From: an uncultured bacterium
GTDB taxonomy: Bacteria; Planctomycetota; Phycisphaerae; UBA1845
Assembly: GCA_965371825.1 (NCBI GenBank)
Contig: CBDUZY010000001.1
Coordinates: forward strand, 1 to 32,268
Reading direction: 5' to 3'
Length of the DNA stretch: 32,268 nt
The notes under the pieces were generated by a model, which was not told where the DNA came from, ran no database searches, and worked only from the letters and a program-made list of their open reading frames with translations. Positions 2,704 to 27,469 of the stretch are shown piece by piece (within the stretch, counting starts at the first letter, position 1; each line of letters opens with the position of its first letter). The position numbers and the translations under genes are program-made.

Positions 2704-3099
2704 TCAATACACGGTGCAGAGAAGCTCGCCGCCGATCTTGCGCTCTCGGCACACCCGGTCGCTCAGAACCCCCTGCGGCGTGGAGACAATCGCCACACCC
2801 AGCCCATCGAGCACGCGCGGCAGATCGGCGACCCCACGATAGACCCTGCAACCGCCTCGTGAGACGCGCTTCAGATTGTGCAACACCGTCTCACCGCGCG
2901 GTCCGTACTTCAAATCGATTCGGAGGATCCCCTGCTTGGTATCCTCGATCAAATCGTATCCCTCTATGTACCCCTCCTCCTTGAGAACCCGGGCAATCCC
3001 CGCTTTCATCTTCGAGGCCGGGATACTCACCTGCTTGCGCCGCACGTGCAAGGCGTTCCGGACACGGGTCAACATATCCGCAATTGGATCAGACCACAT
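2704..3099 (-). CDS. rpsH: 30S ribosomal protein S8
   Basis: 131-aa ORF with the DPIADMLTRVRNA motif and conserved position. Confidence 0.96.
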   Translation of the reverse strand: MWSDPIADMLTRVRNALHVRRKQVSIPASKMKAGIARVLKEEGYIEGYDLIEDTKQGILRIDLKYGPRGETVLHNLKRVSRGGCRVYRGVADLPRVLDGLGVAIVSTPQGVLSDRVCRERKIGGELLCTVY

Positions 3100-4855: not shown

Positions 4856-5131
4856 GCGCAAGATGCGGCTCAATCGCCAGCACTTCGTCTTCGAAAGTCG
4901 TCGACAGGCAACCACCTCGACAACGTCACCCACTCGAGCTTCGTTCTTCTCGTCGTGGGTGTGTAAAGTGGTCGACCGCCGATAGTACTTGCCATACTTC
5001 GGGTGCCGCACCAAGAAGTCGAACCGGACACGGATCGTCTTCTCGCCTTTGTCCGACACGACTTTTCCCGTGCGGCAATCGCGCTTGCCTCGCTTCGCCT
5101 TCGTCACGGTTGTCTGAGGCACACTCGTCAT
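4838..5131 (-). CDS. rpsQ: 30S ribosomal protein S17
   Basis: 97-aa ORF with ATG start and S17-like core (GKVVSDKGEKTIRVRFDFLVRHPKYGKYYRRSTTLHTHDE). Position between rpmC and rplN. Confidence 0.95.
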   Translation of the reverse strand: MTSVPQTTVTKAKRGKRDCRTGKVVSDKGEKTIRVRFDFLVRHPKYGKYYRRSTTLHTHDEKNEARVGDVVEVVACRRLSKTKCWRLSRILRRVSGN

Positions 5132-5188
5132 GATCGCACGATAACCTCGTCAACACACCCGTTGCCGCCGGTCCGCCGGCGGTAAACC

Positions 5189-5437
5189 TCAACCGCCCTT
5201 GCGGTGGGTAGCGGATGACTCCAGGTGGTACTGTTGTTCCTCAATTCCCGTCTCGCCTCTCTCACGAAGGGTCGTCAGGACCCTCGCAATGTCGTGGCGA
5301 ACGGCCTTCAACTGGTGCGGGTTTTCGAGCTTCTCCGTCACAGCCTGGGCACGCAGGTCAAAAAGGTGTCGCCGGATACGATCCAACTCCGCGTGCAACT
5401 CCGGAGTCTTCATTTCCCGAATCTCGACAATCTTCAT
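5189..5437 (-). CDS. rpmC: 50S ribosomal protein L29
   Basis: Trimmed to ATG 5437 (MKIVEIREMKTPELHAELDRIRRHLFDLRAQ). The longer ORF would overlap rplP. GAGG lies upstream. Confidence 0.92.
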   Translation of the reverse strand: MKIVEIREMKTPELHAELDRIRRHLFDLRAQAVTEKLENPHQLKAVRHDIARVLTTLRERGETGIEEQQYHLESSATHRKGG

Positions 5438-5463
5438 CCCGCAGACCTCACTCGCCCCGCCGG

Positions 5464-5883
5464 CTACAGACCGTGGCGCCGCCTTACGAATCGACACCTA
5501 TAGGGAAGCTTATGTGCCACACGCACCAGCGCCTCTCTGGCGACGTCTTCCTCGACTCCGCCGATCTCGAAGAGCATCCCCCCCTCACGTACCGTGGCGA
5601 CCCAAAACGCCGGATCGCCCTTGCCCTTGCCCATTCGCGTTTCGAGCGGCTTGGACGACACGGGCTTGTGAGGAAACAGCCGCACGTACACCTGACCTTC
5701 ACGGTGAAGGTAGTGCGTGGCGGCCACACGACCCGCCTCGATCTGTCGAGCGGTCACCCAACCCGACTCCAAGCACTGCAACCCAAACTCGCCGAAGGCC
5801 ACGGTGTTGCCCCTGCCGGCGGTGCCGCGCACCTTACCCCGCTGGCTTTTACGCCACTTGACTCGCTTGGGCATCAAGGCCAT
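5464..5883 (-). CDS. rplP: 50S ribosomal protein L16
   Basis: MALMPKRVKWRKSQRG... is canonical L16. ATG 5883 is preceded by GGAG plus an 8-nt spacer. The track start at 5886 is a TTG one codon upstream. Confidence 0.95.
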   Translation of the reverse strand: MALMPKRVKWRKSQRGKVRGTAGRGNTVAFGEFGLQCLESGWVTARQIEAGRVAATHYLHREGQVYVRLFPHKPVSSKPLETRMGKGKGDPAFWVATVREGGMLFEIGGVEEDVAREALVRVAHKLPYRCRFVRRRHGL

Positions 5884-5939: not shown

Positions 5940-6647
5940 CTAACCCCTCTTCCCTCGTCGACCCTCACGTCCACGCCCGCGGTAAGAGGTATCCTCGAGC
6001 ACCACCTCTTCGCCGTACCGACCGTGATACAGCCAGACCTTCACGCCGATCGTGCCGTACTTCGTCCGGCAAACCGCTTTGCCATAATCGACGTGGGCTT
6101 GCAGTGTGTGCAGCGGAATCGACCCGCGTAACTGGGTCTCCCGACGAGCCATCTCCGCCCCGCCGAGGCGCCCCGCGCACATGATCTTCACGCCCTTGGC
6201 TCCGGTGGCCATTACGGATTCGATCCGCATTTTCATCACCCGCCGGAAACCCGCTCGCTTCTTGAGCTGTTCCGAAACAGCTTCGGCCACCAGCTTCGCG
6301 TTACCGTCGGGAACCTTGATCTCCACGATATTCAGGTTGATGTTGCGATCCACCAGGTTCTCGAGCGCTTCCTTCAGCTTGTCGACCTCTGCACCCTTAG
6401 GACCAATCACCAGTCCCGGGCGGGCGGTGTGCAACAACACCTTGACTTCGTTTCGAGTCCTCTCGATCTCCACCTTCGCGACGGCTGCGTAGGGCGGCTG
6501 CTTGTTGAGCCTGTCATCTATGTACCGGCGGATTCGCTGGTCCTCGATCAGGAACTCGGCGAACGCCGCCTTGGGCGCAAACCACCGCGACCGCCACTCC
6601 TCGGTGATACCGATACGAAACCCGATCGGGTTGACTTTCTGGCCCAC
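5940..6647 (-). CDS. rpsC: 30S ribosomal protein S3
   Basis: GTG start giving MGQKVNPIGFRIG, with KH and S3-C domains. GGAG lies 7 nt upstream. Confidence 0.96.
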   Translation of the reverse strand: MGQKVNPIGFRIGITEEWRSRWFAPKAAFAEFLIEDQRIRRYIDDRLNKQPPYAAVAKVEIERTRNEVKVLLHTARPGLVIGPKGAEVDKLKEALENLVDRNINLNIVEIKVPDGNAKLVAEAVSEQLKKRAGFRRVMKMRIESVMATGAKGVKIMCAGRLGGAEMARRETQLRGSIPLHTLQAHVDYGKAVCRTKYGTIGVKVWLYHGRYGEEVVLEDTSYRGRGREGRRGKRG

Positions 6648-6699
6648 TTACGACTCCAGCTAAAACCCGCGACTTCTATTCGAACCCGCTCGGCTTACC

Positions 6700-7053
6700 T
6701 CATCCCTCTGCAACAGTTACGACTATGTGACTGGTTCTCTTCGCGATCGGATGGGCCCGCCCGCGATCCTTGGGGCGCCAGCGGCGGTAGTACGGACCGC
6801 CGTCAATCCGAGCGACCTTGACGAACAGCCTCCCCATATCGGCCTCTTGCTCGTCCGCGCTGACCATGGCCGACTTCAACACATCCTGAATCAGCCGGGC
6901 GCTCCGCCGGGTGTTGAAGCGGAGCTGCTCCACGGCCTCGTCACAACGACGACCGCGGATCACGTCGATCAGCAGCCTCGCCTTTCGAGGGGCGATGCGG
7001 GCGAAGCGATGCTTCGCCGTCCATTCCTTAACCGTGTTCTCAGCCGCCGACAC
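6700..7053 (-). CDS. rplV: 50S ribosomal protein L22
   Basis: 117-aa ORF with GTG start and L22-like sequence (AKHRFARIAPRKARLLIDVIRGR). Conserved position. Confidence 0.95.
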   Translation of the reverse strand: MSAAENTVKEWTAKHRFARIAPRKARLLIDVIRGRRCDEAVEQLRFNTRRSARLIQDVLKSAMVSADEQEADMGRLFVKVARIDGGPYYRRWRPKDRGRAHPIAKRTSHIVVTVAEG

Positions 7054-7091
7054 CGTCTATATCACTCCAAGCAAACCGCTGTCCGACACAC

Positions 7092-7364
7092 CTACCGCGA
7101 TTTCCTCCCACTGCCGTGCCCACGGAAGGTACGCGTCGGGCTGAACTCACCAAGCTTGTGCCCGACCATATCCTCGCTCACGTAGACCGAGTGGAAAACC
7201 TTACCGTTGTGGACCTCGAAGCGCTGTCCGATGAACTCCGGAACGATCGTGCAGCGCCGCGACCACGTACGAAGGACCATGCTCTGACCGCTTTCCTTCA
7301 GGAGCATCACCTTCCGGAATAGCTTCTCGTCGACGAAGGGACCTTTCTTCTGTGAGCGCGACAT
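7092..7364 (-). CDS. rpsS: 30S ribosomal protein S19
   Basis: 90-aa ORF reading [15 protein letters not shown]...[32 protein letters not shown]. Confidence 0.96.
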
Positions 7365-7375
7365 CGTAGCCCTCG

Positions 7376-7396
7376 CGGTGACGCAACCGGCGTCAC
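7376..7396 (-). other. Perfect 8-bp stem / 5-nt loop RNA hairpin just upstream of the rpsS SD
   Basis: Transcript strand: GGTGACGC-CGGTT-GCGTCACC, followed by GCGAGGGCTACG ATG. It lies in an unusually long (101 nt) rplB-rpsS spacer. Confidence 0.5.
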
Positions 7397-7465
7397 CGCC
7401 GGGTCACCGTAGCGTTCCAGTCTTTTCCAGCGGGACGTCCAGCCCCGCCCATTCGAAACAGTCCC

Positions 7466-8332
7466 TTACCGCTTGGGCACCGGTAGCTGCCCGTAGCGTC
7501 TGCTCTTGCGACGACGGAGTATCCGGGAGTTCGACACCTTGTTCGGCGCCCGGGTCCTGCCGCCCTTCGCGAGTTTTCCCGTCGGGCTGCAGGGGTGGCG
7601 TCCGCCACCGCTCCGCCCTTCACCACCACCCAGCGGGTGTGAGACGGGGTTCTTCGCCGTACCGCGAACGTGCGGCCGACGCCCGCGGTGGCGCGTTCGT
7701 CCGGCCTTTCCCCATCGAATATTCTGATGCTCGACGTTGCCTACTTGGCCTATCGTCGCACGACATTCCGAGCGTACCTCGCGCATCTCGCCCGAGGGAA
7801 GAATCAGTATCGCCCACTCGTCTCCGCGGGACAAAAGCCTTGCCGATGCCCCGGCGCTTCGGACCAGCTTACCTCCCTGTCCGACGTTCATTTCGACGTT
7901 ATGAACGTCCAGCCCGGGCGGCATGTTCTTGAGGGGCATGGCGTTACCGACTTTCGGCTCGACGGTCTGCCCGCTCTCGACGGTATCGCCGGCCGTCAAC
8001 CCCGCCGGTGCGAGGATGTAACGCTTCTCTCCGTCCTCGTACTCGACTAGGGCGATGTGACAGGTTCGATTGGGGTCGTACTCGACCGCCTTGACCGCCC
8101 CCACCACTCCGTCTTTGTTACGCTGGAAGTCGATGTGGCGGTAAATCCGCCGCGCTCCGCCACCACGGTGGCGTGCCGTAATGCGCCCATGATGATTTCG
8201 TCCGCCGTGCTTGCGCAGTCTCTCACACAACGCCTTCTCGGGACGCTTGTTCTTGTCGGTCAACTCGGCGAAGTCGTTCACAGTGGAACGTCGCCGGCCG
8301 GGCGAGGTTGGCTTGTACTTCCTGATACCCAT
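7466..8332 (-). CDS. rplB: 50S ribosomal protein L2
   Basis: 288-aa ORF with ATG start. Sequence runs MGIRKYKPTSPGRR...GGGEGRSGGGRHPCSPTGK. Confidence 0.97.
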   Translation of the reverse strand: MGIRKYKPTSPGRRRSTVNDFAELTDKNKRPEKALCERLRKHGGRNHHGRITARHRGGGARRIYRHIDFQRNKDGVVGAVKAVEYDPNRTCHIALVEYEDGEKRYILAPAGLTAGDTVESGQTVEPKVGNAMPLKNMPPGLDVHNVEMNVGQGGKLVRSAGASARLLSRGDEWAILILPSGEMREVRSECRATIGQVGNVEHQNIRWGKAGRTRHRGRRPHVRGTAKNPVSHPLGGGEGRSGGGRHPCSPTGKLAKGGRTRAPNKVSNSRILRRRKSRRYGQLPVPKR

Positions 8333-8396
8333 CTTATTGCTGACTCGTCGCGGACAACCCGACCGCGAAACCCCTCGCCGTCACTCCCTTGAGTCT

Positions 8397-8708
8397 CTAG
8401 AACAGATCGATGTGGTGGTCCGCATGCAGCACCACCACCGCCTTTTTCCAGTCCGCCGTCTTTCCCGTCTTGTATCGCACCCGGCGAGCCTTGCCTTTAC
8501 GCATCGCCGTGCGGACGGAAAGAACCCTCACGTTGTAGATCTTCTCGATCGCCTGCTTGATCGTCGGCTTCGAAGCGTTGCGGTGAACCTCGAAGGCATA
8601 CGACCCGCCGCGGGCCGGCCGTGTTCGCGACGCCCCCTGCGACAGCGAAGCCTGGTGCGTACCCTTTTCCGTCACCAGCGGTCGCTTGATTACGTGATAA
8701 ATATCCAT
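8397..8708 (-). CDS. rplW: 50S ribosomal protein L23
   Basis: 103-aa ORF with ATG start, L23-like sequence (VIKRPLVTEKG...KIYNVRVLSVRT) and conserved position. Confidence 0.94.
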   Translation of the reverse strand: MDIYHVIKRPLVTEKGTHQASLSQGASRTRPARGGSYAFEVHRNASKPTIKQAIEKIYNVRVLSVRTAMRKGKARRVRYKTGKTADWKKAVVVLHADHHIDLF

Positions 8709-8723
8709 CGCGACCGCTCGCCC

Positions 8724-9362
8724 CTACTTCCCTTCGTTCGCGACACCGCCGCCACTTAGGCGCTCGAACGCCGGCTTCGTGAAAATCAAGCACGGCCGAC
8801 GCAACACCTCGTAGGCGTTCAGATCGTCAACTACGCGGATGTCCGTATTAGCCAAGTTCCGCCCGGACCGATAGGCGTTCTCGTTCGCCTGATGCATGGC
8901 GACTAGGCACCCCCGCTTGACGCCCAGGGCGGCAAGCATCGTCGCGAACACCTTGGTCTTCGGTTCGGGGCAATCCAGCTCTTCCAGAATCATCACCTCG
9001 TTCGCCTGGATCTTGGCGAGGATCGCGCTGTAGCAGGCCAAGCGGCGCATCTTTTTCGGAAATCCCTTGAACGCCCTGGGGCCTCGCTTCCCGAAGGTCC
9101 TTCCGCCGCCGCGTCGGATCGGTGTCCTGATCGCTCCGGCCCGGGCGTTTCCGGTTCCCTTCTGGCGGTAGAGCTTGCGAGTCGACCCCTCGACGTCGCT
9201 TCGACGTTTGGTGCGCGCACTGTCTTGCCGTTGATGGTCCAGGTAGGCAACGATGGCCTGTTTGATGAGGCGCGGACGAACCAGTCCGCCGAGACACTCG
9301 GGGTCGATTTCGACCTCGCCCGCCTGCTCGCCCTTCATGTTGAATACCGGAACCGCCAACAA
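8724..9362 (-). CDS. rplD: 50S ribosomal protein L4
   Basis: 212-aa ORF carrying YRQKGTGNARAGAIRTPIRRGGGRTFG. It has an apparent TTG start 6 nt after the rplC stop, so the exact start is uncertain. Confidence 0.93.
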   Translation of the reverse strand: MLAVPVFNMKGEQAGEVEIDPECLGGLVRPRLIKQAIVAYLDHQRQDSARTKRRSDVEGSTRKLYRQKGTGNARAGAIRTPIRRGGGRTFGKRGPRAFKGFPKKMRRLACYSAILAKIQANEVMILEELDCPEPKTKVFATMLAALGVKRGCLVAMHQANENAYRSGRNLANTDIRVVDDLNAYEVLRRPCLIFTKPAFERLSGGGVANEGK

Positions 9363-9368
9363 CAGAAA

Positions 9369-10019
9369 CTATCCCTTCTTCTTGGACTGGCGAATCATAA
9401 CCAACGATCCGTTTGGCCCGGGAATACTACCTCTGATCACCATCAGGTCGTGTTCGGCGTCCACCTTGATCAGCCTAAGCGAGCTTGAGGTACGGCGAAC
9501 ACTGCCCATATGCCCTGCCATATGCTTGCCCTTCTTGATCCCACGGCCGGTACCACCGGGAGCGTGCGACCCGATGCCGCCCGGAGAACGATGCTTCCGC
9601 TCCGTTCCGTGCGACGCGCACAAACCCCCGAAACCGTGGCGCTTCATACCGCCGGCAAAGCCCTTGCCCTTGGTGATGCCGGTGACATCAACGTGCCCAA
9701 CCGACTCCTGGGTGAACTGCTCGACCGTTATTACGTCGCCCGGCGAAACCTCGGCCGGTTCCAAGAGCCTGATCTCACGGACTACCCGCTTGGGACCGGC
9801 ACCCGCCTTGGCCGCGTGGCCGATCATCGGCTTTGTCGATCGATGCGGCTTGGCGTCGCCGAAACCCAGCTGGATCGCGTCGTATCCATCGCTCTCGTTT
9901 CGCTTGACCTGCAGGACCACACACGGTCCGGCCTTGACGACCGTCACCGTCTCCATCACGCCGCGCTCGCCCAGAACGCGCGTCATACCGATCTTGGTTC
10001 CCAGCAGTCCTGCCGCCAT
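9369..10019 (-). CDS. rplC: 50S ribosomal protein L3
   Basis: Trimmed to ATG 10019 (MAAGLLGTKIGMTRVL, matching the usual L3 N-terminus). The track ORF begins at GTG 10076. Confidence 0.93.
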   Translation of the reverse strand: MAAGLLGTKIGMTRVLGERGVMETVTVVKAGPCVVLQVKRNESDGYDAIQLGFGDAKPHRSTKPMIGHAAKAGAGPKRVVREIRLLEPAEVSPGDVITVEQFTQESVGHVDVTGITKGKGFAGGMKRHGFGGLCASHGTERKHRSPGGIGSHAPGGTGRGIKKGKHMAGHMGSVRRTSSSLRLIKVDAEHDLMVIRGSIPGPNGSLVMIRQSKKKG

Positions 10020-10176
10020 ACGGAAATCCCAGTCTCGCCGAGAGCACCTCGAACGAGATCGCTCCATTCCCAACACGTGCGATCAAACTCACACGTAGTT
10101 AACTGTCTAAACCGAGAGGACACGTTACCGAGCCCGAGAAAGAGCCCGGAGCCAAACCGTCAAAGAAGCCCACTCG

Positions 10177-10488
10177 CTATGTCTTGATCTTCACGAACAC
10201 ACCGGCGGGCACCTGGATGCGGTTAATCGCCTCGACCGTCCGCGCCGTCGGCTCGCTGATGTCGATAATGCGCTTGTGCGTCCGCATCTCAAACTGCTCT
10301 CGCGATTTCTTGTCAATGTGGGGACCGCGAAGCACCGTGTAGCGCTCGATCCGCGTGGGCAGTGGAATCGGACCGTGCACCTTGGCACTGGTCCTCTTCG
10401 CGTGCTCAACGATCTCTTGCGCCGACGCGTCCAACGCTCGGTGATCATACGCTTCCATGCGAATGCGGATTCGGTTCTTTGCGCTCAC
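10177..10488 (-). CDS. rpsJ: 30S ribosomal protein S10
   Basis: 103-aa ORF with GTG start and canonical S10 sequence ([16 protein letters not shown]...). Confidence 0.96.
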
Positions 10489-10523
10489 GCGTCGTCAACC
10501 CTTCCATCAGGAGCTTAGTCAGC

Positions 10524-10542
10524 CGCTATCCTCAAGATAGCG
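10524..10542 (-). promoter_or_regulatory. 7-bp stem / 5-nt loop hairpin in the predicted rpsJ 5' UTR
   Basis: Transcript strand: CGCTATC-TTGAG-GATAGCG. It lies between the predicted promoter (10554..10581) and the rpsJ GTG. Confidence 0.4.
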
Positions 10543-10553
10543 ACAGACCCGTT

Positions 10554-10581
10554 AGCATACGCCTCCGGAACATGCTGTCAA
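10554..10581 (-). promoter_or_regulatory. Sigma-70-type promoter candidate for the S10/spc operons
   Basis: The minus strand reads TTGACA (10581..10576), a 16-nt spacer, then TATGCT (10559..10554). This is about 65 nt upstream of the rpsJ start, inside the 264-nt fusA-rpsJ spacer. Confidence 0.55.
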
Positions 10582-10752
10582 CACCAATTCCCAGGCAACT
10601 TCCGCGCTTCTGATTGCCGCTGGACTCGGCGACGGCAACCTCCTTCCGCGCGAGATGCGTCTCCAACCGTCGTGTTCGGCCCTCCGCAACGGACAGCGTC
10701 GCCCGATAAACTATGGCACCACTGACGTTCGTGCGCCCACATCGAATGTACG

Positions 10753-12822
10753 TCACCCGACCAGGGCCTTGGCCTCGGCCGCCGGGACGGGTGCATAGTG
10801 TGCCGGGGTCATTGACGACGTGGCGCGACCTTGGGAGAGGCTTCGGAGCTTGGTGACGTAGCCGAACATCTGCGCCAGCGATACCTCAGCGGAGATCACC
10901 CGGGCCTGGCCACGGGCCGAGGTATTCCGAACCAGGGCTTTCCGGGCGTTGAGGTCGGCCATGATCGCCCCGAGATACTCCTCGGAGGTCACGACCTCGA
11001 CGTCCATGATCGGCTGGAGAAGCACGGGCCCCGCAGCGTTCAAAGCGTTGTGAAAGGCGACGTGGGCCGCGCTCTCGAACGCCGTCTCCGAGCTCTCCGT
11101 CTGATGTTGCCTGGCCCCGATGATAGTCGCCTTCCAGTCGATCACGGGGTATCCGCCCAGCGTACCGCTTTGGGCTGCCCCGGTGATGCCCAACTCGACG
11201 GCGGCGGCGAACTCCGGTGCGAGTGCCTCGTAGCCCACGGTGTTTACCACCGTTGGCCCTTTGCCCCTACCGTCTTTCGGCAGGGGCTCCAACCGCAGGC
11301 GAACGACCGCGAAGTGATTTCGGCCGCCGATCTGGCGAGCGAACCTACCCTCGCCCTCGCCGACCCCCTCAACCGTTTCTCTGTACGAGACGCGTGGTTT
11401 TCCGACGATGACATCCACGTTCATCCCGGTCCGCAGCCGGTGCATTACGACCTCGAGGTGCAACTCGCCCATCCCCGAGACCAGCGTCTGTCCCGTCTCG
11501 CTGTTGATTGTGACGCTGATCGTCGGATCCTGCCGCTCGAGGGCGTTTAGGGCATCGAGGAGTTTGTCGCGATCGCGTGAGGAGCGGGGCTCTACCGAGA
11601 TGCTGATAACCGTCTCGGGGAACGTGATGGACTCCAATATGACGGGGTGTCGGGCGTCGCACAGTGTCTGCCCCGTGAGCGCCTCCTTCGGCCCGACGAC
11701 GGCGACGATATCACCGGCCACGGCTTCGTCGAGCTGGTCTCGTCGCTTGGCGAACATGCGATAAATCCGGCTTACGTTCTCTTTGTGCCCGGTAGACGTG
11801 TTGAGAAGGCGCACGTTCGGCTTGAGTGTGCCCGAATAGACACGCAGGAAGTACAGGTCGACCGGCTTTTCGGCGACGACCTTGAAAACCAGCGCCGCAA
11901 CCGGACCGGATGGGTCGCCGGAGAGTTCGCGCTCGACGCCCTCCCGCGTGGGGTCTTCGGCTTTTACCGGCGGAACGTCAAGAGGACTGGGAAGATAGTC
12001 GCACACGGCGTCCAACATTCGCTGGACCCCGATGTAGCGGAGTGCACTACCGCACAAAACGGGGTAGAGGGTCCGGGACAGCGTGCTTCGGCGCACGGCC
12101 GACCGGATGGATTCCGCATCGACCGGCTCGTTATGGACGTACTTCTCCATCAAGTCGTCGCAGTGTTCGCAAAGAGTCTCCAACAGCATGTGTCGTCCGC
12201 GTTCCGCCGCGGCGCAAAGGTCATCCGGAATCTCTCGTACCTCGAACGACGAACCCAGTGCCTCCCGGCTGTAGTAGACGGCCTTCATCTCGACCAGATC
12301 GATGAGGCCTTCGAAACTCCCGGCCGCCCCGATCGGAAGCTGAAGCTGAAGCGGATTGGCACCGAGCCGCTTACGAATCGAGTCCACGCTGCGCTCGAAG
12401 TCGGCCCCTACGCAATCCATCTTGTTGATGAAACACAGGCGCGGTACACCGTACTTGTCTGCTTGGCGCCAGACGGTCTCGGACTGGGCCTCGACCCCTT
12501 CCTTGGCGTCGAAGACAGCCACCATCCCGTCGAGAACACGAAGAGACCTCTCGACCTCCGCCGTGAAGTCGACGTGCCCGGGCGTGTCTATCAGGTTGAT
12601 CGTGTGACCGCGCCAGGGACAGCTTACCGCGGCTGAGTAGATCGTAATCCCTCGAGTCTGTTCCTGTTCATCGAAATCGGTCGTAGTGGTGCCGGCGTCG
12701 ACCTCGCCCATGCGGTGAGTCCTACGCGCATAGTAGAGGATGCGCTCGGTCGTCGTGGTCTTCCCGGCGTCGATGTGGGCGGCTATCCCGATGTTGCGAA
12801 CCGTAGCGAGGTCGATACTCAT
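10753..12822 (-). CDS. fusA: Elongation factor G family GTPase (str-operon copy, divergent)
   Basis: Trimmed to ATG 12822 (MSIDLATVRNIGIAAHIDAGKTTTTERILYY). G motifs AHIDAGKTT, RGITI, DTPGH and NKMD are present, and all five EF-G domains are recognisable. Position after rpsG. Confidence 0.92.
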   Translation of the reverse strand: MSIDLATVRNIGIAAHIDAGKTTTTERILYYARRTHRMGEVDAGTTTTDFDEQEQTRGITIYSAAVSCPWRGHTINLIDTPGHVDFTAEVERSLRVLDGMVAVFDAKEGVEAQSETVWRQADKYGVPRLCFINKMDCVGADFERSVDSIRKRLGANPLQLQLPIGAAGSFEGLIDLVEMKAVYYSREALGSSFEVREIPDDLCAAAERGRHMLLETLCEHCDDLMEKYVHNEPVDAESIRSAVRRSTLSRTLYPVLCGSALRYIGVQRMLDAVCDYLPSPLDVPPVKAEDPTREGVERELSGDPSGPVAALVFKVVAEKPVDLYFLRVYSGTLKPNVRLLNTSTGHKENVSRIYRMFAKRRDQLDEAVAGDIVAVVGPKEALTGQTLCDARHPVILESITFPETVISISVEPRSSRDRDKLLDALNALERQDPTISVTINSETGQTLVSGMGELHLEVVMHRLRTGMNVDVIVGKPRVSYRETVEGVGEGEGRFARQIGGRNHFAVVRLRLEPLPKDGRGKGPTVVNTVGYEALAPEFAAAVELGITGAAQSGTLGGYPVIDWKATIIGARQHQTESSETAFESAAHVAFHNALNAAGPVLLQPIMDVEVVTSEEYLGAIMADLNARKALVRNTSARGQARVISAEVSLAQMFGYVTKLRSLSQGRATSSMTPAHYAPVPAAEAKALVG

Positions 12823-13502: not shown

Positions 13503-14102
13503 CTAGATACCGCTCACGGCCCTCCGTCGATTACGCCGTCCACGCAGCTTCAGGCACACGCCCACAGCCAGGAGCAACTCAACCAACGCCTTCATGGCGA
13601 ACGGAAGGAAGCCCGTCGCCACCGCCAACCGGAGGTCGCCGCCGAACCACACAACCTGCCAACCTACCCCGATAGCAAACACGACAATCAAGCCGATCGC
13701 CCCGGCTACGAGCAACCGAGCAGCCCCAGCCGACTCGTCTCCGCGGAACACACTCACCAACCATGCGGCCCCGACGAATCCGACTATGTACCCGCCCGTC
13801 GGACCCATGACACCCAGCGAACCAGCGCAGAACACGGGAAGCCCCAGCGTCCCCAGCGCCAAGTACGCGAGCATCGCCCCCGCCGCCGGACCGGGACGGA
13901 GCATCAGTCCCGCAAGCAGAACCGCCAATAGCTGCAACGTCATGGGCACTACTGTGCCGGGCACGGGAATCCGAACCTGGGCCGCGAGGGCGGTCAGCAG
14001 GCAGAAACCCGCCACGCCGAGCAGCGTGCGACCCGCGCTATGCACAGCAACCGACCTGCCTACCGCACTCTCAAACACAGCTTCCGAGTCCGTGGTCCGC
14101 AA
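13503..14102 (-). CDS. bioY: BioY-family biotin transporter (ECF S-component-like), polytopic membrane protein
   Basis: 199-aa hydrophobic ORF with BioY hallmarks: AQVRIPVPGTVVPMTLQLLAVLLAG...LGLPVF..G......GPTGGYIVGF. TTG start at 14102 is preceded by AAGGAG plus a 9-nt spacer, 41 nt after the rpsL stop. Confidence 0.85.
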   Translation of the reverse strand: MRTTDSEAVFESAVGRSVAVHSAGRTLLGVAGFCLLTALAAQVRIPVPGTVVPMTLQLLAVLLAGLMLRPGPAAGAMLAYLALGTLGLPVFCAGSLGVMGPTGGYIVGFVGAAWLVSVFRGDESAGAARLLVAGAIGLIVVFAIGVGWQVVWFGGDLRLAVATGFLPFAMKALVELLLAVGVCLKLRGRRNRRRAVSGI

Positions 14103-14605: not shown

Positions 14606-19021
<4,416 letters not shown>

Positions 19022-19114
19022 CGGCGGTCAGTCCTCTTCTGGAATCACTTGCCATTGCAGGCTCTTCCGGCATACTCGACAAAGCACACTTCCAGCGTCC
19101 TATCCCTCGTGCCC

Positions 19115-19606
19115 TCATGCTACACTGCCGGACGTCGCAACGACCGGCGACAGCGTAGCACCGGCGAGGAGCTCCAACACCTCCACCCCGTGCTGTTTCT
19201 TGAAACCCAGCTCTTCACAGAAGTCCACCTCCGTCCCGTATGCGATGGCGTCGACGCGTTCGACACCGTACTCCCTAAGCGCCGCAATCACGCGCCTGGC
19301 CATCTCTCGGGCTATACCGGAGGCGTCGTGCTCGATGCGACCGTCCGTCCTCGTCACGCACGCGGGTCCCTGGTAGGCGGGATCCAGCTTGCACTCCGCC
19401 AATCTTCCCCACAGACCGTCCGTTACTCCGCGGGCAAGACCGATCAGCTCTCCGTCATGTCGCGCCGTCACGATGCAGAAGGTGTTCCGGAGCATCTTGT
19501 CGATCTTCGTCCGTTCGTGCGTCGTTTCGTGGTGCTGTCGGCCATAGAACGCCAACAGCTCCTCCGGAGCGGGCTTGTTCGTGGAGTATGTGATTCCGGT
19601 GAACAT
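19115..19606 (-). CDS. GNAT-like N-acyltransferase (163 aa) inserted between rpoB and rpoC
   Basis: ATG 19606 is preceded by AAAGGAG plus an 8-nt spacer. GNAT-like segments are CIVTARHDGELIGLARGV, LDPAYQG, GIAREMARRVIAALREYGVERVDAIAY and FCEELGFKK. The family assignment is by eye only. Confidence 0.6.
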   Translation of the reverse strand: MFTGITYSTNKPAPEELLAFYGRQHHETTHERTKIDKMLRNTFCIVTARHDGELIGLARGVTDGLWGRLAECKLDPAYQGPACVTRTDGRIEHDASGIAREMARRVIAALREYGVERVDAIAYGTEVDFCEELGFKKQHGVEVLELLAGATLSPVVATSGSVA

Positions 19607-19679
19607 CTCATTCACTCCTTTTCGTGGCCATCGGTTCCCGTTAGACGCCACGGCGTCAACGGTCGGTGACAACACCTGA

Positions 19680-22600
19680 CTATCCGACGTGTCGTTTCTC
19701 CAAGTGAATGTTCAGACACAGTCCGCGGATCTCGTTACACAGGACATCGAAGGAGACCGGCGTCCCGGCCTCGAGCGTGTTACGCCCCTTCACCATTGTC
19801 TCGTAGATCTTCGTTCGCCCTTCGACGTCGTCACTCTTGACCGTGATCAACTCTTGCAGCACATAGGCCGCTCCATATGCCTCGAGGCCCCAGACCTCCA
19901 TTTCCCCGAAGCGCTGTCCGCCGGTGCGGGCCTTCCCACCCAGCGGCTGTTGCGTGATCAGGCTGTAAGGTCCTGTCGCTCTGGCGTGGATCTTGTCGTC
20001 GACGAGATGGTGGAGCTTCAACATGTAGATGTAGCCGACGGTGATGCCCTGGTCGAAGTACTCGCCGGTACGCCCGTCTCGAAGACGAACCTTGCCACCG
20101 GGGCGAAGCTTCGAGAAGCGAAGGTCGTTCGTTGCGGCCCCCGCGATGGCTTCAGCGTCCCCCTGACGACTCGTGGCGACCTCGTTCGCCTCCCGCAGGG
20201 CCGTGTGGATCTCCTCCTCAGACGCCCCGTCGAAGACCGGGGTTACGGCCTGGAGACCAATCACTCTGGCGGCCCATCCCAAGTGGGTCTCCAGAATCTG
20301 CCCCACGTTCATACGTGACGGCACGCCCAGGGGATTCAGCAAGAGGTCCACCGGTGTGCCGTCGTCCAGGAAGGGCATGTCCTCTTCGGGAACGATCTTC
20401 GCAATCACACCCTTGTTGCCATGCCGCCCGGCCATCTTGTCTCCCACCGAAATCGAACGCTTGGTGGCCACATAGACCTTCACCATCTCGAGGACGCCCG
20501 AAGGAAGCTCGTCACCGCGCTTCATCTGAGCGGACTTGCGATCGCGCTCCTCCTGGATCTCCTCGATCCGCGGCCAGAACCGCTCGACTATCGTCAGGCA
20601 ATCCTCACGCTTCGACGCGGGTTTGACCCATTTCAGGTCCCTCGACCGGACGTGTTCGGCGAAGATGTCGATTTGCTCCATGATGACCTCGTCAAGGTCG
20701 CTGTGGCCGACCTTCTGGCGCGTGTTCGGGTCGATCATGGGTGTCTCCATGACGGGTTCGATCTCGTCACAGAGTTGCTTGAAGCAGGCGATGATCCGGG
20801 CGTTCTGCTCGCCCACGTACTTCTCGATCTCCTCGTTCAGTTCTCGGCGCTGCTCGTCGGTCATGTGGATCCGGCGGCTGAAACGCTTGGCCCCGATGAC
20901 GATTCCCTGTTCGCCCGCCGGCAGCTCCAGCGAGTCGTTCTTCACATCCTCCCCTGCTCGACCGAAGATCGCGTGCAGCAACTTCTCTTCCGGGCTCAGC
21001 TCGCTCTTCGACTTCGGACTGACTTTGCCCACGAGGATATCGCGCTGTTGGACCCGAGTGCCTATGCGCACTATCCCGTCGGCATCGAGGTTCGCGAGGG
21101 CTTTCTCGGATACGTTGGGGATGTCGGCTGTGAACTCCTCCCGCCCGAGCTTTGTCTCTCGAACCTCTATGTCATATTCGTCGATGTGGATGCTGGTGAA
21201 GGTGTCGTTTCGAACGAGGCGCTCACTGATAACGATCGCGTCCTCGAAGTTGTGACCGTCATAGGTCAGGAACGCGACCAACACGTTCTTACCGAGAGCC
21301 AACTCGCCGTCGGCGGTCGCGGGTCCGTCCGCGATGATGTCCCCCGCCTTGACCCGCTGCCCCGGCTGGACCAGCGGTTTTTGGTTCATACACGTCCGCT
21401 CGTTGAGGCCCTGGAACTTGCGAAGCAGGTACTCGTCCGTGTCGTCGATCACGATCCGTGTAGCGTCGACGTACGTCACTTTCCCCGTCGTCCGGCTCTT
21501 GACCACCATGCCGCTGTTCGCGGCCACCGCCTTTTCCATTCCGGTCGCTACGACCGGAGGCTCCACCTTCAGGAGCGGGACGGCCTGTCGCTGCATGTTC
21601 GATCCCATGAGAGCGCGGTTCGCGTCGTCGTGCTCCAGGAACGGAATCAACGACGCCGAGACGCCGATCGTTTGCTTGGGCGAGATATCGACAAAGGTGA
21701 CCTGATCGGCATGGACCTGACCGAGGTCACCGTGCCGTCGGACGATCAGGTTTCCCTCCCGAAGGCGATCGGATCCAGGTTCCACAGCCTCGGGAGGAGC
21801 GAGCGTCTCGCGCATCTCCTCGTCGGCGCGCAGGAACAGGTGTTCCCCGATCTTCCCGTTCTTGCCGACCTTGCGGTACGGAGTGATGAGGAAGCCGTAG
21901 TCGTCGACCGCGCTGTACAAACTCAGCGAAGCGATCAGCCCGATGTTCGTCCCTTCCGGGGTCTCGATCGGGCAGATCCGTCCGTAGTGGCTGATGTGAA
22001 CGTCGCGAACCTCGAAGCCCGCCCGCTTTCGGTTCAGCCCGCCCGGGCCTAGCGCTGAGAGACGTCGTTCATGGGTGAGCTGGGACAGAGGGTTCGTCTG
22101 GTCGACGACCTGCGACAGTTCCCCGCGCCCGAAGAAGAGCTCCACGGCTGAGCTGATTGACTTGCTATTGATCAGTTCCGCCACCCGGCCTAGCTGATCC
22201 GGATCCTTGAGGCTCATCCGTTCCTGCACCGTTCGGCGGAGTTTGAGGAATCCCTTCCGCATCTCGTCGGCACACAACTCGTCGAGCGTTCGCAGGCGCC
22301 TGTTGCCCAGATGGTCGATGTCATCGACGGCGAACGCCGACTCGCCGGTTCGCAGCTTCAGAAGGTACCTGAGGCAGTTGACCATGTCCTCGACGGTGAG
22401 CGTCATGGAACCACCGTCGCTATCGATCTCGAACTTGCGATTCAGGCGAAACCTGCCGACCTTGCCCAGGCGATAGCGGTTCTCGTCATAGAATTTCTCG
22501 CCGAACAGCTTCTTCGCCTTGTCGATCTGGGGGGGGTTGCCCGGTCGGAGCCGTCCGTAGATCTTGAGCAGGGCTTCCTCGTACGTGCGGCTCGTATCCT

Positions 22601-23453
22601 CCGCCAGGGTGTTGAGGATGAGCGGATCGGACACCTTGCTTATCACCCGCAGGCTCTTTAACGGAAGGCCCTGGATCCGCTCCACCGCGTCGCCGACCTG
22701 ACACCCGGCCCGAACCAGCACCTCGTCCTCCTCCTCGTCGACAATCGGCGAAACCGTGTACATCTCCGGCTTGAGGGCGGAGGTCCGCACCATCTTCGTC
22801 CGGTAGAACGTCTCGACGATCGCCTCGTCCGTGGAGTACTGCTGATCCATAGCCCGAAGGAATGTGGTCGCCGGCAGCTTGCTCGATTGGTCGATGCGTA
22901 CGACCAGCAGGTCCTTCTTGGTGACCTCGATCTCGATCCAACTGCCCCGCTCCGGGATGATGCGGCAGGCGTGCAGCGCCCGGTCGCCCTCGGCCTGGTC
23001 CTTGATGAAGTCCACGCCGGGGGAGCGGTGAAGCTGGGAGACGATCACCCGCTCCGCCCCGTTAACTATGAACTCGCCGCCGCCGATCATGATCGGCATG
23101 TCGCCCAGGTAGATCTGATCCTCTTGGATCTCGTCGCTGTCCTTGCGCACCAGGCGAAGGCGCACGCGGAGCGGCATACCGTAGGTCAGGCGCAGCTCGC
23201 GGCATTCGTCCGGTGTATATCGCGCTTTTCCCAGCTCGTAACTGATGTAGTGCAGGGCGAGCTTTCCGTCGTAACTCTCGATCGGGAACATCTCCCGAAG
23301 CAGCGATTCGAGACCCCGAGGGGCTCGCTCCGCCGGAGCAACCTCCTCCTGGAGGAAACGAGAGTACGAGCGCGTCTGAATGCCGATCAGGTCCGGAATC
23401 CCGATCGCATCTCCGACCTTCGAGTAGTTTCGGACGGCAAGTGTCGTCGTCAT
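19680..23453 (-). CDS. rpoB: DNA-directed RNA polymerase subunit beta
   Basis: Trimmed to ATG 23453 ([30 protein letters not shown]), with GAGGGA upstream. Conserved beta motifs are present throughout, for example [20 protein letters not shown] and the FGEMEVW-type segment. Confidence 0.98.
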
Positions 23454-23678
23454 AGAGCAAGTCCCTCGTTCAATCGCCCGTGTCGCTTGCGCATGACGCA
23501 AGCGCTGGCTCGTCGGCCGGCGCCGACGAAAGAACACGATACAACAGTGGGACGACCCTCATCGTGCGGGGCTTCCGGTGGACCGGGTGTCCCATCAACC
23601 CGGTCGATCCCGCCCCGCCGTGGACGTGAATTTCCCGCGGGATAAACAAATAAACAAGTCGATCTATACGATCCTCAT

Positions 23679-23713
23679 CCCAAACCAAAGCGGGCAACCC
23701 AGCATCTGCCCGC
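23679..23713 (-). terminator. Intrinsic-terminator-like hairpin (attenuator candidate) between rplL and rpoB
   Basis: Transcript strand: GCGGGCA-GATGCTGGGT-TGCCCGC (7-bp stem), followed by TTTGGTTTGGG. It sits about 95 nt after the rplL stop. This mirrors the known partial terminator at this junction in E. coli. Confidence 0.5.
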
Positions 23714-23808
23714 CGCGGCAGCACCAGTCATCCGATGCAAGCCGCCATCCGAAGTCCGGTAACCGGCAAGTCTCGTTGATCGCGACCAACGACGCCGGCC
23801 ATGGTCGG

Positions 23809-26242: not shown

Positions 26243-26833
26243 CTACTCGACCTTCTCCAGTTGCCAGTACCCCACCTCGATGGGCGTGGATCGACCGAAG
26301 ATCGACACCACCACCGACACCATGCCTCGCTTCTCGTCGACGGTATCGACCTCTCCCTCGTAGCTCTCGAACGCCCCGTCGGTGATCTTCACCTGATCGC
26401 CCTTGTGGATGTTCAGGCCCGACAGTCCCGGCTGCTCCTCCGCCTTTTCCGAGGCGGCTAGCATTCCGACAACATCCTGCTCGGGCATGCTGGTCGGTTT
26501 CCCGTCTGAACCGATGAAATCGCCCACACCGGTCGTCTCTTTCATCAAGAACCACACGGCCTCCGGGATCGATCCATCCTCCTCGCAGGCCATCTCTACG
26601 AAGACGTAACCCGGATAGAGCTTCCGCTCGACGATCTTCAGCACGCCCGACTTCATCCGCTTTTCTTTGAGCGTCGGGACCAGGATCCTGCCGACACGTG
26701 TCTCGAGCCCCTCGATCTTGACCTTGCGATCGAGTGCCTGTCGCACCTGCTCCTCTTTGTTGGAAGCGACGCGCAGGACGTACCACTTCATGCCCGGCGC
26801 GGTAATCTCGGTTGTATTCGGGACGTCGGTCAT
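26243..26833 (-). CDS. nusG: Transcription termination/antitermination factor NusG
   Basis: NGN domain (KWYVLRVASNKEEQV...) plus KOW domain (GDQVKITDGAFESYEGEV). ATG 26833 overlaps the secE TGA (ATGA). Confidence 0.94.
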   Translation of the reverse strand: MTDVPNTTEITAPGMKWYVLRVASNKEEQVRQALDRKVKIEGLETRVGRILVPTLKEKRMKSGVLKIVERKLYPGYVFVEMACEEDGSIPEAVWFLMKETTGVGDFIGSDGKPTSMPEQDVVGMLAASEKAEEQPGLSGLNIHKGDQVKITDGAFESYEGEVDTVDEKRGMVSVVVSIFGRSTPIEVGYWQLEKVE

Positions 26834-27384
26834 CTCTTGAGCACACCGAACCATCTGAATCCCGTCTGGAACACGATGTCCACGACGAACAGGTAGGTGG
26901 CCATCAGCACCGTGAACATAATCACGACCTTGGTCGAGCCGATGATCTCTCGTCGCGTTGACCAGTTCACTTTCTTCATTTCGCCTTCAGTGGCGATCAT
27001 GAAATCGCTGCCCGTCCTGTTGGAGTACGACAGCCACCACAGCAAGCCGCCGAACACGACCGCAAAGACGATCGGAATCCCCGTCGTGATCAGCAAGGAA
27101 AGCACATCGTCGCCCTGGTACACCTGCAGGCGGTCCCAGACGAAATACGCACCCCAAGCGATCAAGGCTCCGCCCGCGGCCATCGTGCCGTTACGGGTGG
27201 CTTTGCCCTGCTCGGGCTTGTACTGCCTGAAGAAACCGCCCTCCGTTCGACGTACGGCGGGGCCGCGCGGGACGTCAGAGGCGCCGCCACCTGATCGCCC
27301 ACCGGGCACGTCACCTCCGCCATTCTTCCGCGAAGGTGTCGACCCCTCCTTACGCTTGATCGCCGTCGTCTCGCTGTCGTCCAT
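26830..27384 (-). CDS. secE: Preprotein translocase subunit SecE, three-TM form with a Gly/Arg-rich N-terminal tail
   Basis: The C-terminal segment KVNWSTRREIIGSTKVVIMFTVLMATYLFVVDIVF is the conserved SecE helix, and two further hydrophobic helices lie upstream. ATG 27384 is preferred over TTG 27447, so the start is uncertain. Confidence 0.85.
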   Translation of the reverse strand: MDDSETTAIKRKEGSTPSRKNGGGDVPGGRSGGGASDVPRGPAVRRTEGGFFRQYKPEQGKATRNGTMAAGGALIAWGAYFVWDRLQVYQGDDVLSLLITTGIPIVFAVVFGGLLWWLSYSNRTGSDFMIATEGEMKKVNWSTRREIIGSTKVVIMFTVLMATYLFVVDIVFQTGFRWFGVLKR

Positions 27385-27469
27385 CTTGTCGCCTAAGTCT
27401 CCACTCGCCTCGGGTCGCGATTCCACCGGACGCCGCGACCGACCCAAACCACGATCGGACCGCCCCCGA

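Follow-up and report, generated by a model that had tools for sequence, protein, structure and literature searches.

A GNAT-fold protein gene lying between rpoB and rpoC in a lineage of Phycisphaerae

The pair rpoB-rpoC, which encodes the β and β' subunits of RNA polymerase (RNAP), is among the most conserved gene adjacencies in bacteria, and in Helicobacter and Wolbachia the two genes are fused. A 2025 survey of rplKAJL-rpoBC architecture lists as the only divergences the cyanobacterial split of rpoC and separations of rplKA from rplJL (10.1101/2025.04.14.645983). Here, we describe a stretch of 32,268 nucleotides (nt) from an uncultured bacterium of the Phycisphaerae (Planctomycetota; contig CBDUZY010000001.1 of assembly GCA_965371825.1), referred to below as the window, in which an open reading frame (ORF) of 163 amino acids (aa) lies between rpoB and rpoC; "gene X" is our working label for this ORF. 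The open-access full texts searched gave no account of a gene that separates rpoB from rpoC in Planctomycetota, nor of a GNAT in an RNAP operon, in agreement with the first-pass annotation of this DNA, which was made from its letters alone and knew of no such report; an earlier mention is possible. The nearest relatives of solved structure belong to the SNAT group, which we place with plastid GNAT1 and GNAT2. The latter two enzymes acetylate protein N-termini and lysines (PMC11585782).

From the comparisons reported below, we suggest, at a probability of roughly 0.5, that X encodes a clade-specific and vertically inherited GNAT-fold enzyme that is co-expressed with RNAP, whatever its target.

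Conservation of gene X and of its position

In a scan of one genome per GTDB species, 140 genomes encode a relative of X, and the best 80 (L001-L080) were used to compare loci. rpoB lies directly upstream of X and on the same strand in 80/80 of these species genomes, and rpoC lies downstream in 78/80, the contigs of the other two (L021 and L048) ending first. The order rpoB-X-rpoC is also kept in a divergent sub-branch of metagenome or metagenome-assembled genome (MAG) loci (L086-L090) with about 51-55% identity to the window. The first-pass annotation had left conservation in relatives as a point to check, and the 80 species genomes together with L086-L090 settle it in favor of the ORF. In two loci of the sub-branch, L088 (CP054187.1, 1..5950) and L089 (1..5941), a PAS sensor histidine kinase gene precedes rpoB in place of rplL, and X is still between rpoB and rpoC. 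RpoB of these two loci is about 1490 aa long compared with 1285 aa in the window. Mean identity to the window is 65% for X and 78% for RpoB and RpoC; across loci, X identity is correlated with RpoB identity (r 0.61) and with RpoC identity (r 0.65). All 80 genomes are MAGs, and the label is Phycisphaerae, Phycisphaerales or Planctomycetota in each but L062 (JANQQE010000027.1). The latter is labelled "Alphaproteobacteria bacterium", yet it has the order rpoB-X-rpoC-rpsL-bioY and an RpoB 75% identical to that of the window; this bin is probably mislabelled or contaminated.

X is a real gene, as documented by its homologues and by third codon positions that vary far more than first and second positions. 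Of the 912 homologues that a search of 5.8 billion proteins gave at E<=1e-3, the best 120 are 63-77% identical to X and 160-170 aa long, and a search seeded with a divergent member gave 730 matches. An exhaustive hidden Markov model (HMM) search of 1.84 billion cluster representatives returned only 130 proteins at E<=1e-3, which argues that the family is compact. Among 80 orthologues, mean pairwise identity at codon positions 1/2/3 is 0.69/0.75/0.45, and the median ratio of nonsynonymous to synonymous substitutions (dN/dS, NG86 method) is 0.25, an upper-side estimate because dS is saturated and the GC content at third codon positions (GC3) is 0.78. In a separate comparison with the polymerase genes, GC3 of X (0.76) is close to that of rpoB and rpoC (0.80-0.81), in keeping with co-expression. 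The codon-position pattern and the dN/dS ratio speak against a frame kept open by GC content alone, a doubt that the first-pass annotation had itself raised. X starts with ATG in 57 loci and with GTG in the other 24, and a Shine-Dalgarno-like 4-mer precedes it in 70/81 loci, compared with 0.30 at random positions. NCBI and JGI label X proteins as "hypothetical protein", "GNAT family N-acetyltransferase" or "RimI-like". No cultured organism with X was found in the homologue searches or the species-genome scan, in which every named match is a MAG.

In the window, the features on which the following sections draw are these:

23714..23689, minus strand: terminator-like hairpin in the rplL-rpoB spacer (terminator scan)
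19680..23537, minus strand: rpoB (RNA polymerase β), an ORF whose orthologues have RNA_pol_Rpb2 Pfam domains
19607..19679, minus strand: rpoB-X spacer of 73 nt, including the Shine-Dalgarno sequence; no terminator-like site
19621..19615, minus strand: Shine-Dalgarno sequence AAAGGAG, followed by an 8-nt spacer and the ATG at 19606
19115..19606, minus strand: gene X, 163 aa, GNAT fold (Pfam, AlphaFold2, Foldseek, homologues)
19391..19393, minus strand: codon of Cys72 in strand β4, motif AECKLD, invariant in 238 family members
19319..19366, minus strand: loop insertion PACVTRTDGRIEHDAS, residues 81-96 of X, which splits the coenzyme A (CoA) pyrophosphate motif
19217..19219, minus strand: codon of Cys130 in helix α4, motif DFCEELGF, invariant in 238 family members
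19022..19114, minus strand: X-rpoC spacer of 93 nt; no terminator-like site, Shine-Dalgarno-like AGAGGA before the rpoC ATG
14606..19021, minus strand: rpoC (RNA polymerase β'), an ORF with orthologues
13503..14102, minus strand: bioY between rpsL and rpsG, 199 aa, BioY family (Pfam 94 bits)

The first-pass coordinates of rpoB, rpoC and the ORF, the gap of 658 nt (19022..19679) that separates rpoB from rpoC, and the 73-nt and 93-nt flanks were each re-checked on the DNA and are correct; the strong Shine-Dalgarno sequence is present where it had been placed, and all peptide strings quoted from X are found in its translation. An alternative in-frame GTG at 19675 would give a protein of 186 aa; the homologues begin at the ATG instead. 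The longest rpoB ORF also opens with GTG, and its real start may be ~28 codons downstream at MTTTLAV. High GC content accounts for the plus-strand ORFs that overlap X (e.g. 18974..19669).

The terminator scan found no terminator-like site in the 73-nt or the 93-nt flank of X, as the first reading of the sequence had held. The sites nearest to X are the hairpin in the rplL-rpoB spacer, which is the sole terminator-like site immediately upstream of the rpoB-X-rpoC block, and one at 18890..18873 (minus strand) inside rpoC. The former is a 9-bp GC-rich hairpin with a T-rich tail in the position of the classical rplL-rpoB attenuator, and it has no Rfam match. Across loci, the spacers are short (medians of 66 nt for rpoB-X and 85 nt for X-rpoC) with T-runs mostly <=3, and Shine-Dalgarno-like sites stand ahead of both X and rpoC. 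The idea that the spacers contain a conserved RNA element or a terminator was rejected, as Rfam gave two tRNAs only and the folding of the spacers is no different from that of shuffled sequences (mean z about -0.5). Short unstructured spacers, the absence of terminator-like sites from them, the shared strand and the separate Shine-Dalgarno sites suggest that X is co-transcribed with rpoB and rpoC. In our model, X most likely lacks transcription signals of its own. It would be carried on the mRNA of rpoB and rpoC, with a separate Shine-Dalgarno sequence for its translation; as a consequence, the level of X would track those of β and β'.

The surrounding cluster is entirely on the minus strand and comprises tRNA-Thr, tuf, tRNA-Trp, secE, nusG, rplKAJL, rpoB, rpoC, rpsL, rpsG, fusA, rpsJ and rplCDWB. 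The SecE homologue (26830..27447, minus strand) is 205 aa long, with the SecE domain confined to residues 153-200 and preceded by a long N-terminal extension.

Fold and active site of the X protein

The Pfam family PF00583 (Acetyltransf_1, clan CL0257) matches X at 24.9 bits, compared with a gathering cutoff of 20.7 bits (E 2.6e-5), and the match falls in two stretches that are broken at the loop insertion. An AlphaFold2 model of X built from 72 sequences has a mean predicted local distance difference test score (pLDDT) of 85.8 and a predicted TM-score (pTM) of 0.80, with a C-terminal tail from about residue 147 that is variable and modelled at low confidence. The order of its secondary-structure elements, E-H-H-E-E-E-H-E-H, is that of GNATs (β1-α1-α2-β2-4-α3-β5-α4-β6). 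Foldseek against the PDB gave 188 matches at E<=0.001, and the best 50 are all GNAT-type acetyltransferases. At the top stands rice chloroplast serotonin N-acetyltransferase 1 (SNAT1; 6k5m, 7dai-7dak/7daj; E 5.6e-10, TMq 0.70), followed by uncharacterised GNATs (SA2161, DR_1678), AAC(6')-Iy, YpeA and GNA1. X and acetyl-CoA-bound SNAT1 superpose with a root-mean-square deviation of 2.1 Å over 146 columns at 23% identity; at the sequence level the two are only remotely similar (E 0.045 with phmmer and 0.0013 with a profile). Thus, the modelled structure, together with the Pfam and Foldseek matches, shows X to have a GNAT fold, and the GNAT-like layout first read from the translation is borne out by HMM and structure comparison.

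The first-pass annotation had also raised a RimL-like role for X and had pointed to rplL two genes upstream, in other words to an N-terminal acetyltransferase of L7/L12 of the RimL/RimI type. In favor of this reading, X is a small GNAT within the rplKAJL-rpoBC cluster, a RimI structure (7n1l) is among the Foldseek matches (rank 33, E 8.9e-6), and the nearest solved family, the SNAT group, corresponds to plastid GNAT1/2, which have N-terminal acetyltransferase activity (PMC11585782); a text search of that paper gave no mention of OsSNAT1 itself. The "RimL-like" label found no support. No NCBIfam family matches X, the best scores (13.6 and 12.8 bits) being to models of amino-acid N-acetyltransferases with cutoffs of 180 and 154 bits, i.e. 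to unrelated equivalogs and to no Rim family; no RimL structure is among the best 50 Foldseek matches; and X is still present in loci where the operon lacks rplL. We therefore regard a RimL/RimI-type enzyme acting on L7/L12 as very improbable. The placement of rice SNAT1 in the plastid GNAT1/GNAT2 group is our own assumption.

A toxin of the TacT/AtaT type or a defence gene was likewise considered and set aside: no PADLOC defence or toxin-antitoxin model matches X at E<=1, its neighbours are rpoB and rpoC, and there is no small partner ORF.

The extra segment of ~15 aa noticed after β4 in the first reading is a true insertion within the CoA pyrophosphate loop. In the profile-to-PDB alignment, SNAT1 "...VDPSYQG-QGLGKAL" is aligned to X "...LDPAYQG[PACVTRTDGRIEHDA]SGIAREM", so that 15 residues are inserted in the β4-α3 loop (Q/R-x-x-G-x-G/A) of X and part the motif Q-x-x-G-x-A into Q79-G80 and S96-G97-I98-A99. 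A contiguous motif A is consequently absent from X, and each half of the motif is conserved; since both halves are conserved, CoA binding may survive the split. A second departure is in helix α4, in which a Tyr serves as the general acid in many GNATs, a feature that is common in the superfamily and not universal. SNAT1 "VDFYKNLGF" is aligned to X "VDFCEELGF", and the SNAT1 Tyr thus corresponds to Cys130 of X, which is present in 238/238 family sequences.

These 238 sequences are full-length members from both sub-branches. C72, K73, L74, Q79, G80, P81, R90, E92, E126, D128 and C130 are conserved in 100% of them, D75 and D94 in >=99% (D94 in 237/238), H93 in 99%, E71 in 98% and C44 in 97%. The invariant and near-invariant residues are of polar or catalytic type and cluster on β4, the inserted loop and α4, and the β4/loop/α4 region is the thioester site in GNATs. 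C83 is conserved in 51%, with Ala in the other branch. A four-ligand Cys/His metal site (C44, C72, C83, H93, C130), which we also considered, is weakened by this replacement of C83 in half of the family. Because the invariant residues C72, K73, D75, Q79, R90, E92, D94, E126, D128 and C130 are polar or catalytic and clustered, we favor an enzyme over a scaffold. In our model, X probably still binds acyl-CoA, since the GNAT core, β4 and the α3 N-terminus (S-G-I-A) are intact, and its active site would be remodelled by the 15-aa loop (P81..D94, with R90, E92, H93 and D94) lying over the pyrophosphate site and by two invariant cysteines, C72 on β4 and C130 in place of the general-acid Tyr, with E71 probably acting as general base. 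N-acylation of a conserved target, possibly a transcription or translation protein, would be the most likely activity.

More distant relatives help to order these changes in time. A second tier of GNATs with about 25-31% identity to X (P0149, P0151, P0152, P0163 and others), from MAGs labelled Chloroflexota and Planctomycetota, aligns with X at an hhalign probability of 99.8% (29% identity over 154 columns). These proteins have the same loop insertion (QGP...IExD..G[IV]G); by contrast, they keep the Tyr (FYxxxGF) and have a conserved ICE motif instead. Neither rpoB nor rpoC adjoins them in any of the five contexts examined (0/5), and these contexts are unrelated with nothing recurrent, for which reason an assignment of function from the gene context of distant homologues was abandoned. 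As the loop insertion is present in the second tier, it would be older than the move of X into rpoBC, and among the sequences compared, Cys in place of the Tyr is confined to the clade in which X is embedded in rpoBC.

Origin of the arrangement and possible roles of X

Loci without X were sought with a degenerate DNA pattern in which an RpoB C-terminal motif (MV[KR]G..FDVL.[NH]EI[RK]) lies within 137-197 nt of an RpoC motif; this permits a spacer of about 11-71 nt and thus leaves no room for X. At least 120 metagenome stretches have rpoB followed directly by rpoC by this pattern, with RpoB 58-73% identical to that of the window, and none of them encodes X or bioY. In a neighbour-joining tree of 143 near-complete RpoB sequences (1195 columns, midpoint-rooted, no bootstrap), the clade descending from the most recent common ancestor of the 68 X-bearing loci holds 70 tips and the remaining 73 X-less loci fall outside, where X-bearing loci were sampled via X and X-less loci via the short-spacer pattern, so that in-clade genomes of another arrangement would escape both. 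The two X-less tips inside the clade, L115 (Ga0272443_10004258) and L150 (Ga0123519_10025802), group with the X-bearing L079, their nearest relative (RpoB identity 84% and 81%, respectively). In both, rpoC directly follows rpoB and the diagnostic RpoB residues of the clade are still present, as if X had been lost secondarily or had moved elsewhere. The X-bearing loci thus make up a single clade from which X was apparently lost twice, and the simplest reading is one ancient insertion that was passed on vertically, X having been lost or relocated at least once. In other words, X would have been inserted once between rpoB and rpoC in the ancestor of a large Phycisphaerae lineage and then kept.

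Several of these observations could also speak for a factor dedicated to RNAP. X stays between the subunit genes even where rplKAJL is detached from rpoB; for a GNAT of this small size, it is very highly conserved (65%, compared with 78% for RpoB); the interrupted P-loop occurs together with the Tyr-to-Cys change only in the rpoBC-embedded clade, while relatives elsewhere keep the Tyr; and RpoB of the X-bearing clade has a 7-aa insertion (about window residues 960-966) and a few diagnostic residues, including two Lys, that are absent from the X-less outgroups. These RpoB features may be ordinary synapomorphies or candidate modification sites. One version of this idea is that X, made from the same mRNA, is an RNAP partner that binds or covalently modifies β/β' or a docking factor by means of its two-Cys and R-x-E-H-D-loop site, which we consider unlikely. 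Another, which we find no less doubtful, is that X is an assembly chaperone associated with β/β', an accessory subunit or a co-translational modifier, with the GNAT fold serving as a binding module or for Cys-based chemistry. Against this second version stand the invariant residues, which look catalytic and do not form a broad interface, the loci L115 and L150, which lack X at the junction yet kept the RpoB signature of the clade, and the lack of fusion (Rosetta-stone) evidence. As to the latter, the apparent X-β' fusion of 1671 aa in L024 has a stop in the DNA at 3064 and is no fusion. P0126 (X and the RpoC N-terminus), P0127 (class-III aminotransferase and X) and P0146 (ATP synthase gamma and X) are likely chimeric assemblies or deletions, because they are on short contigs with unrelated genes joined mid-domain; the longest contig recorded is the 19.6 kb of the P0126-like P0125, and the others are in the class of about 1 kb. 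P0159, a surface protein of 1608 aa with repetitive sequence, is a spurious match.

A more mundane explanation, and a credible one, is that X is a passenger, namely a housekeeping small-molecule or general protein acyltransferase that settled in a permissive spacer and is kept for its strong growth-coupled expression and because excision from rpoBC is risky. The evidence from neighbouring genes bears on this explanation. bioY is similarly placed, between rpsL and rpsG, in most X-bearing loci, being absent from L033, L035, L041, L088, L089 and from all X-less outgroup loci reaching rpsL-rpsG. The spacers around X also take other DNA. A two-gene cassette encoding an HEPN-like protein (Pfam HEPN at 20.8 bits, slightly under the cutoff) and an ~88-aa protein lies in the rpoB-X spacer of L042 (about 5100..5825) and in the X-rpoC spacer of L079 (5424..6136), and it looks like a mobile module of the toxin-antitoxin type for which these spacers are landing sites. 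In L066, a 5.3-kb insert (6477..11620) with genes for a 522-aa dockerin-domain protein, a 287-aa ORF and two paralogous ORFs of 420-470 aa without Pfam match separates X from rpoC, and X still adjoins rpoB. Moreover, homologues of about 30% identity with the same loop insertion are in unrelated contexts, the structural neighbours of X include the small-molecule acetyltransferases SNAT, AAC(6') and GNA1, and X has apparently been lost twice within the clade. By contrast, X is kept in 68/70 sampled in-clade RpoB tips and is kept more steadily than bioY or the link between rplL and rpoB, and the invariant, clade-specific Tyr-to-Cys change suggests specialisation after insertion. On balance, we hold the passenger explanation to be possible, if on the improbable side.

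Our preferred reading, a vertically inherited GNAT-fold enzyme co-expressed with RNAP, has to be weighed against the following points. X is absent from the junction in L115 and L150 and is thus dispensable there or has moved. Because bioY, which encodes a membrane transporter component, sits in rpsL-rpsG of the same clade, and because toxin-antitoxin-like and other cassettes enter the spacers that flank X (L042, L079, L066), operon position is weak evidence of function or target. With its split pyrophosphate motif and with no Tyr as general acid, X is not assured to carry out canonical acetyl transfer, and the inserted loop is modelled at a pLDDT of ~62 only. Finally, because promoters of Planctomycetota are poorly defined, an internal promoter could escape a sigma-70 scan. 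With respect to the target, a protein of the transcription or translation machinery is plausible and attractive by analogy, from the position of X and from its nearest solved relatives, which acetylate proteins; acylation of RNAP or of L7/L12 in particular is inferred purely from gene position.

Irrespective of its target, X stands for a GNAT subfamily, as yet uncharacterised, in which the CoA loop is interrupted and Cys takes the place of the active-site Tyr. The gene has been retained across at least 140 species-level genomes and well over a thousand protein clusters at 90% identity, and X can serve as a simple synteny marker for the clade. A foreign enzyme gene within rpoBC is also a natural experiment on what the RNAP core operon tolerates or exploits. 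Should X act on the transcription machinery, bacterial RNAP would have in it a new regulator or modifier peculiar to this lineage; if X is a partner of RNAP, it would be a lineage-specific, enzyme-type component of transcription with non-canonical GNAT chemistry. If X is unrelated to the transcription machinery, then X and bioY would mark the core operons of Phycisphaerae as expression platforms for unrelated genes.

Comparison with known systems

Among GNATs, the plastid SNAT1/NSI enzymes (OsSNAT1, 6k5m, 7dai-7dal) share with X the blocks LIGxARxxxD, DPxYQG and VDFxxxLGF. However, in X the blocks YQG and (S)GIA are set apart by 15 additional residues and a Cys stands where SNAT1 has a Tyr, and X is bacterial and embedded in an operon. 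RimI, RimJ and RimL are, like X, small GNATs, they act on the translation machinery, and RimI (7n1l) is a Foldseek match; they differ in that they have no family-level sequence match to X and rank low among the GNAT structures. To our knowledge, rim genes are not sited inside rpoBC. In our judgement, X is a GNAT-fold protein with an unusual configuration of active site and loop, and its clade-wide location is unprecedented. Among rearrangements of the RNAP genes, the split of rpoC into rpoC1 and rpoC2 in cyanobacteria and plastids resembles the arrangement described here in being a lineage-wide rearrangement of RNAP core genes. However, in the rpoC split and the rpoB-rpoC fusion, the subunit genes themselves are altered, whereas at the rpoB-X-rpoC locus the gene of an unrelated enzyme has been intercalated between them and maintained.

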